Below are positions 1 to 5,053 of a DNA stretch of 5,053 nucleotides, piece by piece. Location: IMG/VR virus record IMGVR_UViG_2671181111_000008; one strand, written 5' to 3'. The notes beneath the pieces were generated by a model, which did no database searches, was not told where the DNA came from, and worked only from the letters and a program-made list of their open reading frames with translations. Source of the stretch: a virus. Lineage: Duplodnaviria; Heunggongvirae; Uroviricota; Caudoviricetes. Every line of letters starts with the position of its first letter. Position 1 is the stretch's first letter. The position numbers were made by a program, and so were the translations under genes.

Positions 1-61
1 ATAGATGGGCGCGATTGTTGCCAGACAGGACAATTTTCACAAGACGTCGCTGATGGGGCGC

Positions 62-82
62 TTACCGTAATGATGGCGACAT
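62..82 (-). pseudogene. Probable remnant of an SAR-endolysin (R21-like) start: ATG overlapping the holin stop, then MSPSLR and TAA
   Basis: Minus strand reads GAA-TAA-TG: ATG at 82..80 overlaps the S stop (84..82) in a TAATG arrangement, as in lambdoid S-R junctions. It translates M-S-P-S-L-R and then stops at TAA (64..62). From memory, phage 21 endolysin begins MPPSLRK. Downstream sequence does not continue an endolysin-like frame. Confidence 0.35.
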
Positions 83-297
83 TATTCACCTCTCGCAGCC
101 TTACGCTTGTCTTCTCTGATTTTGAAGTACAGATTTGTCAGATAAGTCAGGAAGCCCAGAACCAGACTCCCCAGTACACCAATCGCAGCCCACTGTGACG
201 GACTGACCTGATCAAGCCACTGTAAAAACCAGTAGCCAGCACTGCCTGCGGAGGTGCCGTAGGCAATGCCCGTTGAAATTTTGTCCATGGATTTCAT
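82..297 (-). CDS. S: Class II holin / pinholin, S21-like (71 aa)
   Basis: 71-codon ORF with ATG at 297..295 and GGAGG Shine-Dalgarno (309..305) 7 nt upstream. N-terminus MKSMDK gives the Met1/Met4 dual-start motif. Two hydrophobic segments and a charged C-tail ([13 protein letters not shown]). The sequence matches my recollection of the phage 21 pinholin. Position downstream of Q and tRNAs fits a lambdoid late operon. Confidence 0.85.
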
Positions 298-404
298 AGC
301 CTCACCTCCGCAAATAACGGATGGCGTAGTTTTACACTGAGAAATGAAAGGGATTTGAAAAGAAAAAACCGCAAAAGCGGGCGAAACGATATATACAGTA
401 AGGA

Positions 405-457
405 AAGCACTCTATCCAACAAACCACTCACAGTTAATCGGAATAAAAGCAGAGTGC
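405..457. repeat. Perfect 9-bp inverted repeat (aagcactct / agagtgctt) with 35-nt spacer
   Basis: Arms at 405-413 and 449-457 are exact reverse complements, read directly from the sequence. Confidence 0.6.
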
Positions 458-530
458 TTATGAATGATCGCCTGCCCGAAGGTTAGTATTTCTGCACAGC
501 AATTTTGCAAAAAAAAGCGATCATTCATAA
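458..530. repeat. Perfect 14-bp inverted repeat (ttatgaatgatcgc / gcgatcattcataa) with 45-nt spacer containing an A8 run
   Basis: Arms at 458-471 and 517-530 are exact reverse complements. The spacer 472-516 contains aaaaaaaa at 509-516. Confidence 0.65.
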
Positions 531-537
531 CTTAAAC

Positions 538-583
538 GTCTTTCAGTCACTCCGGGATTTCCCATCATCGCAGACTGAAAGAC
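538..583. repeat. Perfect 11-bp inverted repeat (gtctttcagtc / gactgaaagac) with 24-nt spacer, immediately 3' of the tRNA-Gly-like gene
   Basis: Arms at 538-548 and 573-583 are exact reverse complements. It sits 7 nt beyond the CCA end of the tRNA at 590. Confidence 0.6.
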
Positions 584-589
584 TCTAAC

Positions 590-656
<67 letters not shown>

Positions 657-664
<8 letters not shown>

Positions 665-795
665 NNNNNNNNNNNNNNNNNNNNNNNNNNNNNNNNNNNN
701 NNNNNNNNNNNNNNNNNNNNNNNNNNNNNNNNNNNNNNNNNNNNNNNNNNNNNNNNNNNNNNNNNNNNNNNNNNNNNNNNNNNNNNNNNNNNNNN
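657..795. other. 139-nt run of N (assembly gap or masked sequence)
   Basis: Read directly. It removes the 5' end of the tRNA at 590-664 and about 130 nt of what is otherwise tRNA-cluster spacer. Confidence 1.
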
Positions 796-817
796 ACCTA
801 CTGAGCCAAGTCGGCAC

Positions 818-894
818 TGGACCGCCACCGGGGACTCGAACCTCGCACACTCAACTTAAAGGGTTGACGCTCTTTCCTGATGAGCTAGTGGCGG
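818..894 (-). tRNA. tRNA-like gene with atypical anticodon loop CCUUUAA (C33; anticodon positions read UUU); isotype uncertain
   Basis: Reverse complement folds as a cloverleaf: perfect 7-bp acceptor stem (CCGCCAC/GTGGCGG, C1-G72), D-stem GCTC/GAGC with 9-nt loop containing GG, anticodon stem TCAAC/GTTGA, 5-nt variable loop, T-arm CGAGG-TTCGAGT-CCCCG with one A-C mismatch, discriminator U, encoded CCA at 820..818. Position 33 is C rather than the near-universal U. Confidence 0.6.
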
Positions 895-895
895 T

Positions 896-971
896 TGGTG
901 GCCCTTGCTGGATTTGAACCAGCGACCTGGCGATTATGAGTCGCTCGCTCTCACCACTGAGCTAAAGGGCC
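896..971 (-). tRNA. ileZ: tRNA with CAU anticodon, tRNA-Ile2 (lysidine-type, ileZ-like) rather than tRNA-Met
   Basis: 76-nt cloverleaf: acceptor GGCCCTT/AAGGGCC, D-arm GCTC-AGTGGTGA-GAGC, anticodon loop CUCAUAA (U33, anticodon CAU), T-arm GCTGG-TTCAAAT-CCAGC, discriminator A, encoded CCA. It closely resembles my recollection of E. coli tRNA-Ile2 (ileX), and lambdoid Q-to-S regions typically carry ileZ. Confidence 0.8.
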
Positions 972-980
972 GAGCGCAGG

Positions 981-1009
981 ATAATAACGTTACGAAATCA
1001 ATGTTGCAA
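981..1009 (-). promoter_or_regulatory. Candidate sigma70 promoter for the tRNA cluster (TTGCAA -17- TATTAT)
   Basis: On the minus strand, -35 TTGCAA (1009..1004), 17-nt spacer, -10 TATTAT (986..981), then a GC-rich discriminator cctgcgctc before the tRNA 5' end at 971. The predicted start lies only about 4-6 nt upstream of the mature tRNA. Confidence 0.4.
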
Positions 1010-1069
1010 GCATTCAAAAATCACCCTTATCTCCTCCACCAGCGCATTCACCATGTCTATCCGAGATAA

Positions 1070-1100
1070 GTGGCACAAAAAACCCGCTTGTGGGCGGGTT
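1070..1100 (-). terminator. Rho-independent terminator (candidate tR-prime), bidirectional in appearance
   Basis: Stem aacccgc (1081-1087) / gcgggtt (1094-1100) with 6-nt loop. On the minus strand it is followed by UUUUUUGUG; on the plus strand by ttgtttgctttt. It lies 70-100 nt downstream of the Q-like stop. Confidence 0.6.
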
Positions 1101-1152
1101 TTGTTTGCTTTTGCCATCACGTACAAAATCGGCAAAATATCAGATTTGCATG

Positions 1153-1181
1153 AATATATGCCTTTCAATCTACTTTTGCAA
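1153..1181 (-). promoter_or_regulatory. Candidate late promoter (pR-prime-like), TTGCAA -17- TATATT, overlapping the Q-like stop codon
   Basis: On the minus strand, -35 TTGCAA (1181..1176), 17-nt spacer containing the TAG stop (1172..1170), -10 TATATT (1158..1153). The predicted start near 1146 would give a short transcript ending at the terminator at 1070-1100, the geometry expected of a Q-modified late promoter. Confidence 0.45.
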
Positions 1182-1880
1182 CACTTTGCTTTGAAAATGC
1201 CGTCTTTTTTTTGAACGTGTTCTCATTACAAACAATAAAGCCTCACTATCCAGTCGGTGAAAAATGTGTTTCATTACAACCCAGTGACCAGTAAATGTTT
1301 TGGACCAGTTTTTGGTTGTTACTCCCGCCAGTAATGCCAGCTCCTGATATTCATAACCTTCCCCACCAACCTGGTATTCATAACCTTCCCCACCAAAAAG
1401 TTCTGCTTTTACTGCCTGCGCCGCCAGCCAGATTAATTTTTTCAGGCGTTCCTGCGTTTTCCCTGCAATTTTTCTGGTACCGGATTGAGCATTAAATTCA
1501 TTCCACGCCCACTGTGTTATCGCGATCTGATATTCCCAACAAATACTCCCGCTGTAACACCACAACAACCAGGCTTTATGATGTTCTTCAAGAGACAGAA
1601 CAGCCCGCCGCCACGATGATGTCGAAAACTCAACCGGACTGACCAGAGGAATTGACGTCCCCTTCGCCAGCGATTGCTTTCCCGGGATTGGTGGATTATC
1701 CCGCGTTATCATTTTTCCAGTCACTTCATCGCGGTACCGGATTTTTTTACGCCTGTAACGCCCTGTATCGAACATGGCATTCTCTTGCCAGGCTTCAAGC
1801 TGACCTTTTGTTGCCCCACTCAAATCAGCGGTGGCGATAATGAGCTGCTCACGCACAAACTGTAAATACTGGTTATTCAT
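1170..1880 (-). CDS. Putative late-gene antiterminator (Q-like, about 236 aa), assigned mainly by synteny
   Basis: Long ORF immediately downstream of rusA and upstream of the candidate late promoter, terminator, tRNAs and holin, which is the canonical Q position. The ORF track starts at a GTG (1886); the ATG at 1880..1878 overlaps the rusA TGA stop as ATGA and is the more likely start. I do not recognise a specific Q-family motif, so the function is inferred. Confidence 0.55.
   Translation of the reverse strand: MNNQYLQFVREQLIIATADLSGATKGQLEAWQENAMFDTGRYRRKKIRYRDEVTGKMITRDNPPIPGKQSLAKGTSIPLVSPVEFSTSSWRRAVLSLEEHHKAWLLWCYSGSICWEYQIAITQWAWNEFNAQSGTRKIAGKTQERLKKLIWLAAQAVKAELFGGEGYEYQVGGEGYEYQELALLAGVTTKNWSKTFTGHWVVMKHIFHRLDSEALLFVMRTRSKKRRHFQSKVLQK
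1343..1396. repeat. Tandem 27-bp direct duplication (26/27 identical) inside the Q-like CDS, encoding GGEGYEYQ twice
   Basis: Copy 1 at 1343-1369 (cctgatattcataaccttccccaccaa) and copy 2 at 1370-1396 (cctggtattcataaccttccccaccaa). In frame, giving GGEGYEYQV-GGEGYEYQE in the protein. Confidence 0.9.
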
Positions 1881-2242
1881 GCGCACCCCAGTTCTGTGAT
1901 TTTTATCCCCAGCCGCCCACCAGGAACGAGCTGACCGCGCACAATATTGATTTCATCAAACTGCTCGTCGTCTATAAGTAGTCCAGCATGCGTCAGCGCA
2001 TCCAGCGGTGCCTTCAGGATATTGTCCAGGTCACGACGGCGCTTATCCGGTGGCTCTGCAATAATCTTTATCGCCAGCCTTCCGGACAGGTTTAATTTCA
2101 GTCGCTGCTGGCGAACAATTAGCGCCACATCACGGCGATAACGCTCACCGGCTTTTGATACAAAATATGTGCTGCCACGACGTCGCCAGTAGGTGTTCAC
2201 CGTTGGCGGGTAAGGCAAAACAAATTCTATGCGTTCGGTCAT
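1877..2242 (-). CDS. rusA: Crossover junction endodeoxyribonuclease RusA (Holliday junction resolvase)
   Basis: 121-aa ORF with clear similarity to my recollection of E. coli RusA: PDKRRRDLDN (vs RusA PDRRRRDLDN), LIDDEQ acidic pair, C-terminal GGRLGIKITELG (vs GGRLELTITEMG). ATG at 2242..2240 directly follows the upstream TAA (TAAATG). Confidence 0.9.
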   Translation of the reverse strand: MTERIEFVLPYPPTVNTYWRRRGSTYFVSKAGERYRRDVALIVRQQRLKLNLSGRLAIKIIAEPPDKRRRDLDNILKAPLDALTHAGLLIDDEQFDEINIVRGQLVPGGRLGIKITELGCA

Positions 2243-3301
2243 TTATGCTTTCCACTTCAGAACACCCGAATTTCTCGCGTGCATTAAAAAACGAATCAGC
2301 AACAACAACTGACTACCGTGTTTTTCTTCAAAATCTTTTACCCCGGCGTGTAGTTCGTTATGGCATTTACGACACAGCGGAATAACAAACAAATCGTCAG
2401 CCTTTGTTCCCATCCCTCCCAGTCCATGACCAATGATGTGGTGCGGATCATCTGCCTGATTGCCACACGTCATGCATTTCTGCGTTTTTACCCAGCGCGT
2501 GTATACAGGCATCTCTTCCCGTTGTGGTTTCTGGCGCTGGAGATACTGAGCCGGAGATTCCGGATCAACGGCAATGCTGACCACCGTCTCTTCCTGTGGT
2601 GGATTCTGTTGCTGGTGGGCGTGAGGCAGCGGCGCAAGATTTTTTGTGCGCTGCTTCAGTATGCTGGTGGAGGTCTGCTCTCCCGGCACGATGTCGCTTT
2701 CACGGTACATTGAGCGGATTTTTTCCGCACGCAACCCCAGCGAACGACGTAATACCGCTTCCGGTAGCGCGTCCGCCACCTGATTGCGGACCGCCCACCA
2801 GGATAATTCAGCCAGAGATAATTCACGCTCCTGCGTACCGCTTATTGCGTGACCGATGACGTCAATCATCCATGCTGACAGGTTTTGATGAGCAAGTTGC
2901 TCGAGTGATTCGGATGTCTGGTCACGCAACTGGTTGTCGCAGTGCCAGCACAACACCATTGCGCCGGTACCATAACGGTGAATGACGGTTTCGCTGTGAT
3001 GATAATCGCCGTGTGGCCACTGGCAGGATTTCATATGGCGCAACAGCCAGTCAGACAATGCGCCAGCACCACCAGCAGCACGAATCACCCGTGCGTTACT
3101 GAAAAACGGCAGCAATGTTTTGTCTTCCACCAGCGGCTGGCGAACGGCAGGAACGACCCCGGACGGCAGATTACGCATGCTTTTCGGTTCCGGCTCCACC
3201 AGTACCCGGGTATTGTGGAATACCGGCATGGATTCACGGCCTGGCTTAAGGACCACCAGCCCGAGTTCCGGAACCAGAACAGGTCGAAGTAATACCCGCA
3301 C
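2243..3301 (-). CDS. Prophage nin-region protein, DUF968/YdfU-like with a C-terminal NinG/YbcO-like Cys-His module; probable GTG start
   Basis: 352-codon ORF. C-terminal segment CMTCGNQADDPHHIIGHGLGGMGTKADDLFVIPLCRKCHNELH has the CxxC...H...CxxCH pattern I recall from lambda NinG (Rap) and DLP12 YbcO. Size and position resemble Qin-prophage ydfU. Start is GTG at 3301..3299 with GGAGG (3310..3306) 4 nt upstream; the in-window ATG at 3303 is in another frame. Confidence 0.7.
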   Translation of the reverse strand: MRVLLRPVLVPELGLVVLKPGRESMPVFHNTRVLVEPEPKSMRNLPSGVVPAVRQPLVEDKTLLPFFSNARVIRAAGGAGALSDWLLRHMKSCQWPHGDYHHSETVIHRYGTGAMVLCWHCDNQLRDQTSESLEQLAHQNLSAWMIDVIGHAISGTQERELSLAELSWWAVRNQVADALPEAVLRRSLGLRAEKIRSMYRESDIVPGEQTSTSILKQRTKNLAPLPHAHQQQNPPQEETVVSIAVDPESPAQYLQRQKPQREEMPVYTRWVKTQKCMTCGNQADDPHHIIGHGLGGMGTKADDLFVIPLCRKCHNELHAGVKDFEEKHGSQLLLLIRFLMHARNSGVLKWKA

Positions 3302-3302
3302 A

Positions 3303-3581
3303 TTACCTCCAGATCCGTTGCTGGAATGTGCAGGACGGACGCGGTGGCCGTTCGGAATAAGGGAGCCTGACGAAGATTATCCAGTGACGATAATCGAGAC
3401 TGAGGGCTTTCTTAATCTCGTATCCGTGTCTGCGGTAGCGCTGAATCAGCCATTCAGCCTGTTCTTCGGTGCAGGGGTCGTGCTGATACCAGTCAGATTT
3501 GAATGCATGAGAACGCCGCCCGTGCCTGCTGGCAGGGGCGGCAGAGTTATCCGAATTGTAAAATTTGGTATCGTGCGCCAT
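3303..3581 (-). CDS. Hypothetical prophage protein (92 aa); the ORF-track 135-aa version is over-extended
   Basis: The track ORF starts at a GTG (3710) upstream of, and spanning, the hok terminator (3653-3680), so its first 43 codons are likely untranslated. The first ATG after the terminator is at 3581..3579. The stop TAA (3305..3303) sits 1 nt before the downstream GTG. No recognisable motif; the SD is weak. Confidence 0.45.
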   Translation of the reverse strand: MAHDTKFYNSDNSAAPASRHGRRSHAFKSDWYQHDPCTEEQAEWLIQRYRRHGYEIKKALSLDYRHWIIFVRLPYSERPPRPSCTFQQRIWR

Positions 3582-3652
3582 CTGTTTTCTCTGCTGGCGC
3601 AGCAGGTGCCAGTTGTTCAGGCTGACGGATGGATTGTAAACCAGAACGACCA

Positions 3653-3680
3653 GAAAAAACAAAACCCGCCGAAGCGGGTT
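3653..3680 (-). terminator. Rho-independent terminator of the hok transcript (UUCG tetraloop hairpin plus U-tract)
   Basis: Minus-strand RNA: stem aacccgc / gcgggtt (3680..3674 and 3669..3663) closed by a UUCG loop, followed by UUUUGUUUUUUC (3662..3651). Confidence 0.7.
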
Positions 3681-3748
3681 AAGTGCGGGTGCGTTGAGGA
3701 TGCCTGACACATCAGCGGTGGCGAGGGATTTCTCCCCCGCCGGGTCTC

Positions 3749-3904
3749 TTACTCCTCAGGTTCGTAAGCTGTGAAGACAGCGACCTCCGTCTGGCCGGTT
3801 CGGATTCGTACCTCGCAGAGGTCTTTCCTCGTTACCAGTGCCGTCACTATGACGGTTAAACAGATGACGATCAGGGCGATTAACATCGCCTTTTGCTGCT
3901 TCAT
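3749..3904 (-). CDS. hok: Hok/Gef-family type I toxin (51 aa), HokD/RelF-like
   Basis: Translation MKQQKAMLIALIVICLTVIVTALVTRKDLCEVRIRTGQTEVAVFTAYEPEE matches my recollection of E. coli HokD/RelF. Single N-terminal TM segment and conserved Cys. ATG at 3904..3902 preceded by AAGGAG about 9 nt upstream. The 70-aa track ORF is an in-frame upstream extension. Confidence 0.9.
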   Translation of the reverse strand: MKQQKAMLIALIVICLTVIVTALVTRKDLCEVRIRTGQTEVAVFTAYEPEE

Positions 3905-4078
3905 AGCCTGCTTCTCCTTGCCTTTCGGCACGTAAGAGGCTAACCTACATGTGTTCAGCATGGATTGAGCCTCAGATTAATGTTAAGCGTCTTGCAGGAC
4001 GCGTAATGTTAACTGGGGCTTTTCTCTATCTGCCTTTTGGTGTTCATGCCTGAGACAGATAGCCTCAAGCACCCGCAG
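3905..4078 (-). promoter_or_regulatory. hok mRNA 5' leader (tac-like 5' end, 5' stem-loop, upstream translation-initiation region)
   Basis: Minus-strand sequence gcttgaggctatctg...cagatag...agcctcttac...gcaaggagaag...ATG parallels the plasmid R1 hok leader as I recall it. The 5' segment (about 4078..4063) is complementary, with one bulge, to the 3' UTR segment (about 3700..3685), the fold-back arrangement characteristic of hok mRNAs. Confidence 0.5.
3975..4075 (+). ncRNA. Candidate Sok-like antisense RNA region (ends not determined)
   Basis: By analogy with hok/sok, the antitoxin RNA is transcribed antisense to the hok leader, starting near the upstream initiation region and running toward the hok mRNA 5' end. 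The plus strand here carries weak -10 candidates (TAATGT at 3978-3983 and 4004-4009) and the complement of the hok 5' stem-loop. I could not fix a clean promoter or terminator. Confidence 0.3.
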
Positions 4079-4080
4079 TC

Positions 4081-4109
4081 ATTCTACTTAACTAAGATTT
4101 CCCTGCAAA
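4081..4109 (-). promoter_or_regulatory. Candidate sigma70 promoter of hok mRNA (TTTGCA/TTGCAG -16/17- TAGAAT)
   Basis: On the minus strand, -35 TTGCAG (4108..4103), 16-nt spacer, -10 TAGAAT (4086..4081). Predicted start near 4074, just upstream of the gcgggtgcttgaggct leader segment. Confidence 0.5.
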
Positions 4110-4163
4110 CCGTTTTTGTCCGGCACAGTAAATATCCAACTAAACCAATAGCGTTCGCTGTAT

Positions 4164-4343
4164 TTACCGCCAGTATTCAATGCACATGACCGCCATGAAC
4201 ACCCCTAAAAAAAGGGCATTTATATGTCCAAACATTAATATCAAAACATCAATTTTTTCCATATACCTTGCTGTGAAGATGATGGGCATACATGATGCGA
4301 ACAACCAGAACGCAACAAACAAAAACTGCAATGCGTTTTTCAT
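4164..4343 (-). CDS. Possible small hydrophobic (two-TM) protein, 59 aa, in an AT-rich island
   Basis: Internal ATG (4343..4341) of the 72-aa track ORF is preceded by AGGGGGAATA, an acceptable SD about 5 nt upstream. Product MKNALQFLFVAFWLFASCMPIIFTARYMEKIDVLILMFGHINALFLGVFMAVMCIEYWR has two hydrophobic stretches. AT-rich DNA readily produces spurious ORFs, and an overlapping antisense ORF exists. Confidence 0.25.
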   Translation of the reverse strand: MKNALQFLFVAFWLFASCMPIIFTARYMEKIDVLILMFGHINALFLGVFMAVMCIEYWR

Positions 4344-4555
4344 TATTCCCCCTACAATCAATGTGCAATAACATTTAAACACACCTCAATTTGGCCGGAC
4401 ATATAAATATCTAAACCAGAAAAAATCACTTACATAGCGTTACAAACTCTTTAGTCTAAATACTCATCGTAAAACATTCCCCATACTTATCAGTCCGTTC
4501 CGCGCCAGGTAGCTTATTGCCTTATCTGGCAACCTATAATCAGGTTTCCGCTTTT

Positions 4556-4978
4556 TCAGTTGGCTGGTCGTTTAACCGACATAGTTAACCCATTAATCTG
4601 GTTGCCGGATGCTGGTGGATTTTCGCGTTTTAGTTGTTCATAAAAGTGCACAGCTTTAACCAGTTCTTCTGATGTAACCGGGACTGGTGGGGCAGTGAAT
4701 AAGGCCTGAATTTCATAGTTCGGCCTGTCGTTACAATCCTCTTTTTTCGGTACATATTTCCAGTCACCAACCCACAACTCCCCCTGAGAGTCCATAACAC
4801 CTTTTTTCACGTAGCGATATCGCCACGCTATCGGCTCTGCTTCCAGCGATGCCCGTGCAATTTTGAATAACTCGCCCTCTACTCGCGCCATCCCTGAATT
4901 GGGGTGGCATTTCGTAATCGCTATTTTTAATTTGGCTTCTTCGATTAATTGTTCTTTTGTTAATTCAGTCATTTTCAT
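4556..4978 (-). CDS. Hypothetical protein (140 aa), unknown function
   Basis: ATG-initiated ORF (4978..4976) of normal GC content and non-repetitive composition, same orientation as the rest of the prophage genes. I recognise no motifs. The IS1 end lies 9 bp upstream of its start codon. Confidence 0.6.
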   Translation of the reverse strand: MKMTELTKEQLIEEAKLKIAITKCHPNSGMARVEGELFKIARASLEAEPIAWRYRYVKKGVMDSQGELWVGDWKYVPKKEDCNDRPNYEIQALFTAPPVPVTSEELVKAVHFYEQLKRENPPASGNQINGLTMSVKRPAN

Positions 4979-4987
4979 TACCGCCCT

Positions 4988-5053
4988 GGTAATGCTGCCA
5001 ACTTACTGATTTAGTGTATGATGGTGATTTTAAGGTGCTTGCGTGGCTTCCAT
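4988..5053 (+). mobile_element. Left end of an IS1-family insertion sequence (divergent isoform), truncated by the window edge
   Basis: ggtaatgctgccaacttactgatttagtgtatgatggtgattttaaggtgcttgcgtggcttccat aligns with my recollection of the IS1 left end (GGTGATGCTGCCAACTTACTGATTTAGTGTATGATGGTGTTTTTGAGGTGCTCCAGTGGCTTCTG), with about 8 mismatches in 66 nt. Confidence 0.85.
5043..5053 (+). CDS. insA: Start of IS1 insA (partial, runs off the window)
   Basis: GTG GCT TCC AT.. at 5043 onward corresponds to the InsA N-terminus M-A-S of IS1, at the expected distance from the left inverted repeat. Only 11 nt are in the window. Confidence 0.45.

Follow-up and report, generated by a model that had tools for sequence, protein, structure and literature searches.

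In the lysis system of phage 21, the pinholin only depolarises the membrane, upon which the signal-anchor-release (SAR) endolysin is released and activated, and Rz/Rz1 then disrupt the outer membrane. The closest described counterparts of the gene considered here are the SAR endolysins R21, from phage 21, and RrrD, from the DLP12 prophage of Escherichia coli K-12, GH24 phage lysozymes (PDB 4ZPU and 3HDE/3HDF) whose genes come directly after an S21-type holin gene and overlap its stop codon as TAATG. DLP12 belongs to the cryptic lambdoid prophages of E. coli K-12 and Shigella (DLP12, Qin and Rac type), which are riddled with insertion sequences (IS); both DLP12 and Qin retain their rrrD/rrrQ lysozyme genes. 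Among insertion sequences, the IS66 family is defined by terminal inverted repeats that begin GTAA(GCG), and its three-ORF members (tnpA-tnpB-tnpC, around 2.7 kb) include IS679.

The stretch of DNA analysed here, referred to as the window, comprises 5,053 nucleotides of a viral record, and is a 4.9-kb lambdoid late-region prophage remnant bracketed by an IS66-family element and IS1. It has the same Qin/DLP12-like late gene order as the cryptic prophages mentioned above, and is likewise IS-bounded and IS-truncated, but its lysozyme gene is cut at codon 6. Very probably, an IS66-family element disrupted the SAR endolysin gene in the course of IS-driven prophage decay, leaving the lysis cassette defective. 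The S21-type holin, the RrrD-type SAR lysozyme, the IS66-family element and IS1 all belong to known families, and an IS-bounded remnant is what IS-driven genome decay usually looks like in Shigella. The inactivation of prophage genes by IS elements is already well known in both Shigella and E. coli, and nothing here is unexpected.

The holin gene and the frame that follows it

The features at the lysis end of the window, in window coordinates, are the following.

297..82 (stop included), minus strand: intact class II (S21-type) holin gene, from the ORF list, PF04971 and identity to the prophage of E. coli FDAARGOS_944 (L001)
82..62, minus strand: stub frame MSPSLR plus stop, with ATG at 82..80 and TAA at 64..62, from translation
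82..66, minus strand: 17 nt, ATGTCGCCATCATTACG, the authentic 5' end of an rrrD/R21-type SAR endolysin gene, from base-by-base comparison with L001
73..66, minus strand: predicted 8-bp IS66-family target site, TCATTACG, deduced from the duplication GAAAAACG around the full-length IS of E. coli NDM6 (L006) and from PMC6778807
65..1, minus strand: left end of an IS66-family insertion sequence, namely, terminal inverted repeat plus leader upstream of tnpA, from similarity to IS66-like copies

The holin frame (297..85, with its stop, TAA, at 84..82) encodes a product of 71 aa, which matches PF04971 (Phage_holin_2_1) with E=1.4e-35 over positions 1-63 of the 64 in the profile, and its nucleotide sequence is 100% identical to that of the holin gene of the intact prophage L001. 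The start of the product, MKSM, is the S21 dual-start arrangement. The holin stop and an ATG (82..80) overlap as TAATG (84..80, minus strand), and the frame opened by this ATG reads ATG TCG CCA TCA TTA CGG TAA, that is, MSPSLR and a stop. The initial annotation had reported the overlap, the MSPSLR peptide and the TAA at the seventh codon, and all three are present upon translation of the minus strand. It had also likened MSPSLR to an MPPSLRK start of the phage 21 SAR endolysin; such a start is borne out for R21/RrrD, as the sequence of PDB 4ZPU begins MPPSLRKAVAAAIGGG.

An intact version of this region is available for comparison. When positions 650..1 of the window were compared by megablast with 5,426 complete E. 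coli genomes, prophages matching the window were found, among others, in strains FDAARGOS_944 (100%) and FDAARGOS_943 (99.8%), with all alignments ending at window position 66; the holin-IS66 junction is absent from this set of genomes, where the best coverage stops at that same position. The prophage of FDAARGOS_944 (L001) was used as the reference for an intact rrrD gene. Its gene order is holin, annotated rrrD, lysis protein, HNH endonuclease and terminase genes, and window positions 650..66 are 100% identical to it over 585 nt. The rrrD product of this prophage, of 165 aa and beginning MSPSLRKAVAVAIGGG, is a PF00959 lysozyme (E=1.7e-44) that aligns over all 165 residues with PDB 4ZPU, 'Lysozyme RrrD' (E=1.3e-107), and also full-length with PDB 3HDE, the phage 21 SAR endolysin R21. 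Its SAR helix is seen as AVAVAIGGGAIAIASVLITG.

Base by base, the window and L001 agree perfectly through the holin gene and ATGTCGCCATCATTACG, and only at chance level afterwards, where the intact rrrD reads MSPSLRKAVAVAIGGGAIAIASVLITG. The breakpoint lies between rrrD nucleotides 17 and 18 (window 66/65), and the 17 nt of ATGTCGCCATCATTACG are the sole remainder of rrrD inside the window. This comparison identifies the MSPSLR stub as the genuine beginning of an rrrD/R21-type gene, by homology and not by chance, because these 17 nt are identical to an intact rrrD in an otherwise 100%-identical prophage. The arrangement is also that of a holin-endolysin pair, with the rrrD start directly 3' of the holin gene and overlapping its stop. 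However, when compared with RrrD and R21, the stub consists of six codons only and has neither a SAR helix nor a catalytic domain, which makes it a gene remnant and not a functional member of the group. As the initial annotation had stated, nothing resembling a signal anchor lies between the holin and the window edge: a Gly/Ala-rich SAR helix is absent from the three minus-strand frames of 84..1. Neither was rrrD-like sequence encoding the lysozyme catalytic domain found past window position 66, nor in the 0.4 to 7 kb beyond in four relatives that share the junction (L002, L003, L007 and L009). The earlier statement that the functional endolysin start had been lost needs qualification, since the start codon with its TAATG overlap is still there, as are the 17 nt that open the gene; it is everything after them that is displaced.

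The IS66-family element at the window edge

The sequence that replaces rrrD begins GTAAGCGCCCC at window position 65, and its first seven bases (65..59) are GTAAGCG. The first G of this terminus finishes codon 6, which is CGC in the intact gene and CGG here, both for Arg, and bases 2-4 are the in-frame TAA of the stub. The premature stop is, therefore, the tip of a mobile element, because this TAA belongs to the IS terminus. A stop that appears so suddenly at codon 7, behind a flawless gene start, could also result from a nonsense change of one nucleotide in an endolysin gene that is complete in all other respects. However, a gene altered at one position would continue to resemble rrrD past window position 66, where identity is instead at chance level, IS66-family ends match and the downstream frames bear no resemblance to a lysozyme. 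The base-by-base alignment with L001 rules this explanation out, and we accord it practically no probability. The initial annotation had set a nonsense change against a deletion junction; alignment with the intact R21-type gene, with identity through 17 nt followed by an IS66-family end, points to neither, but to a third option, namely, IS66-family insertion.

The identity of the element is supported by other copies. First, window positions 84..1 alone have matches in 692 E. coli records, at several places per genome and on both chromosomes and plasmids, and these matches sit immediately ahead of genes that bear the annotation 'IS66-like element accessory protein TnpA'. Second, window positions 65..1 are identical to the IS copy in strain MIN10, with 100% identity over 66 nt in L005; tnpA, tnpB and tnpC are annotated in L004, L005 and L006. 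Third, these positions differ by one base from the complete copy in E. coli NDM6, which served as reference (L006 4004-6712), spans 2709 bp and carries tnpA, tnpB and tnpC. Both ends of this copy begin GTAAGCGC, the left one starting GTAAGCGCCCC and the right one finishing GCGCTTAC; they are imperfect inverted repeats, complementary at some 20 of their first 32 positions, and the copy is flanked by the 8-bp direct repeat GAAAAACG. Thus, the window shares with the three-ORF IS66 family the GTAAGCG terminus, and the reference copy has the inverted repeats, the 8-bp duplication and the IS66 Pfam domains, whereas only the first 65 nt of the element lie inside the window. The IS was named to family level only.

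An 8-bp target-site duplication has been reported for IS66 (PMC6778807), and together with the duplication around the NDM6 copy it suggests TCATTACG, the last eight bases of the rrrD remainder, as the probable target. If the insertion was simple, a second copy of TCATTACG is predicted past the far end of the IS. Searches for the reciprocal junction, namely, the IS right end followed by TCATTACG and the rest of rrrD, gave no match with two patterns in viral contigs and one in metagenome contigs.

Recurrence of the junction and sequence beyond the window

An exact 43-nt pattern spanning the breakpoint was used to scan other genomes for the junction. It occurs in two complete chromosomes, those of Shigella flexneri SFBU1023 (L003) and of a genome of 4.44 Mb that bears the label E. 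coli ECMA0423 (L002). Three IMG/VR contigs (L007 to L009) contain it as well. Since the same junction is found in two closed genomes and three contigs, it is real and inherited, and common to several Shigella-type genomes. One of the contigs, L008, matches the window at 100% over 4..656 and differs from it at a single position over 796..5053; it stops four bases before the window edge is reached. The ends of the window lie around 65 nt inside two multicopy IS elements, which suggests that both it and L008 are contigs of draft assemblies that broke at repeats. Such ends (IS66-family sequence at 1..65 and IS1 at 4988..5053) are typical of short-read contig breaks, and would be compatible with a chimeric contig end, produced when a read from a repeated IS was attached to prophage sequence. 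Nevertheless, an assembly artefact of this kind would not be expected to recur identically in two complete chromosomes and three independent contigs, where the IS continues for 0.4 to 2.2 kb; the recurrence in closed genomes rules out a chimera, whose probability we consider minute.

Past the window edge, both S. flexneri SFBU1023 and the contig L007 encode TnpA (PF01527), TnpB (PF05717) and TnpC (PF13007, PF13005 and PF03050). In S. flexneri, tnpA encodes 224 aa with PF01527 and its ATG is located 82 nt from the IS tip, or 18 nt past the window edge; tnpB encodes 115 aa with PF05717; and tnpC is cut at 275 codons, retaining PF13007, PF13005 and only the first 75 of the 284 positions of PF03050. 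The tnpC part in the Shigella relatives is only about 70% identical to that of the E. coli reference copy, so the element may be a mosaic or a different family member. The tnpA ATG shares its reading frame with MSPSLR, and, because two stops intervene, no MSPSLR-TnpA fusion protein is made.

These longer sequences also settle the nature of the minus-strand frame that is open from position 83 to the window edge. The initial annotation had noted an open frame from position 80 and allowed for a shifted gene within it; the open frame is there, but the shifted gene is not, as the frame is IS sequence. Although it has no stop within the window, and could for that reason be read as a shifted or alternative endolysin gene, in S. 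flexneri the same frame is closed by a stop after 50 codons and does not leave the IS leader, with no ATG, GTG or TTG near its start, and a BLASTP comparison with RrrD gave E=4.4, that is, no lysozyme similarity. The continuation and the BLASTP comparison rule out an endolysin in this frame, to which we attach a vanishingly small probability. Both observations that could have overturned the initial annotation, an intact endolysin in the downstream frame and a coincidental six-codon match, have thereby turned out otherwise, the former being IS sequence and the latter homology. Its main proposal, namely, a cryptic prophage in which the holin survives but a working endolysin does not, and thus a defective lysis cassette, is supported by the IS66-family junction.

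Whether the endolysin gene was split or partly deleted affects its history but not the verdict, because the endolysin is non-functional either way. After a simple insertion, the rest of rrrD, with Rz and the genes that follow, could be intact just past a 2.7-kb IS in the genome of the window. IS66-family insertions normally do no more than split the target in two and duplicate 8 bp of it, and in L007 the IS runs uninterrupted to at least element position ~2171, where the contig ends. However, in the closed S. flexneri genome an IS3-family element breaks off tnpC after 275 codons and borders directly on a truncated tail module of myovirus type, with no rrrD within 7 kb, and the predicted reciprocal junction is absent from the viral and metagenome collections. 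Likewise, L002, L003, L007 and L009 lack any sequence resembling the remainder of rrrD or the Rz, HNH and terminase genes that follow it in L001. We regard a merely split gene as unlikely, albeit with an appreciable chance, and the loss of the 3' part, rather than its relocation, as the probable outcome in the genome of the window.

As for the disrupted tnpC locus of S. flexneri SFBU1023 (3950-6006 in L003), the IS3-family element (orfA/orfB, with PF01527 and rve) is followed on its far side by a truncated tail-terminator gene and then by the myovirus sheath and tube genes of another prophage. In this strain, nested IS events join two unrelated prophage remnants.

Taken together, the most plausible history is that an IS66-family element transposed into the rrrD/R21-type gene of a lambdoid prophage, with the break falling after nucleotide 17 of the coding sequence, at the predicted target TCATTACG. 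The IS terminus GTAAGCG completes codon 6 (CG+G, Arg) and supplies an in-frame TAA, so that only MSPSLR would be made, with the signal-anchor-release domain and the entire muramidase domain gone from this position. A later IS-mediated rearrangement then probably eliminated the 3' part of rrrD or moved it elsewhere, in the S. flexneri lineage at least. The holin, Q and tRNA cluster upstream are intact. A simple insertion is probable, although the right end of this IS copy and a second TCATTACG were not found; recombination between IS copies could in principle also give the junction. Late transcription would at most yield the membrane-depolarising pinholin, and the cassette would be unable to lyse the cell because it has no endolysin, its relatives being also devoid of Rz/Rz1 or structural genes downstream.

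It could be speculated that the intact pinholin, Q and tRNA genes serve the host, for instance, as a lysis-free, membrane-depolarising suicide or abortive-infection module, or that Q-dependent late transcription drives the co-oriented IS66 tnpA, 82 nt behind the stub. If tnpA were so driven, IS66 transposition would be coupled to prophage induction signals. We consider these two scenarios, even jointly, to be highly improbable.

Disruption of the endolysin gene by an IS66-family element matters little beyond annotation. It accounts for the lack of an annotatable endolysin behind this holin, identifies the window edge as IS66-family sequence, and marks the window as an IS-bounded prophage remnant of Shigella type. 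The shared junction could be used to trace the lineage of its carrier strains, and, more generally, a stop codon that comes too early near the end of a contig may belong to the terminus of a mobile element and not reflect a point mutation.

The rest of the prophage remnant

From the IS1 end towards the lysis end, the prophage genes, all on the minus strand, follow the order hok-type toxin, DUF968, RusA, Q, tRNAs and holin, with the following features.

4988..5053, plus strand: IS1 copy, left end, running to the window edge, from the end match at 4988..5010 and annotated copies
3961..3749, minus strand: hok/gef-type toxin ORF, PF01848, E=3e-23
3301..2243, minus strand: DUF968 protein, from profile and ORF list
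2242..1877, minus strand: RusA, from profile and ORF list
1886..1170, minus strand: late-gene antiterminator Q, an open 238-aa frame, PF06323, E=4e-88
971..590, minus strand: phage tRNA cluster between Q and holin (Met/Ile-CAT, Lys, Thr and Gly), from ARAGORN on the window and L008, and from the L001 annotation

The listed hok/gef ORF is 70 aa long owing to an upstream ATG start, and its homologue in L001 is annotated as HokD. Three further minus-strand ORFs, at 4556-4978, 4164-4382 and 3303-3710 (140, 72 and 135 aa, respectively), have no Pfam match. The Q gene carries an in-frame 27-nt tandem duplication at 1343..1396 (GGEGYEYQV/GGEGYEYQE). The prophage L001, near-identical in other respects, lacks this duplication, and its Q carries a frameshift annotation. 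A scan of 1..1250 for promoters and terminators gave nothing above the shuffle expectation that bears on the stub or the IS.

Within the tRNA cluster, tRNA-Thr and part of tRNA-Gly are hidden by a run of Ns at 657..795. This run is 139 nt long, and all relatives, including L008, have 67 nt there, corresponding to tRNA-Thr and the start of tRNA-Gly. Either the masking did not preserve length, or the source has some 72 extra bases, roughly one more tRNA.

The IS1 copy mentioned in the initial annotation is indeed present. Its left end (4988..5010) has one mismatch to the IS1 end used for comparison, which was matched in 0 of 200 shuffles, and the IS1 sequence of the window (4988..5053) is 100% identical to annotated IS1 copies. 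This IS1 end begins upstream of the 140-aa ORF, 10 nt from its start codon, and the insertion may have parted this ORF from its promoter. Both the window and L008 carry the IS1 end, whereas L002 (5534-5546), L007 (7075-7087) and L009 (5289-5301) have only its first 13 nt, GGTAATGCTGCCA, followed by unrelated sequence. This 13-nt piece could be what remained after a deletion, or a recombination scar, and the right boundary of the remnant differs between lineages.
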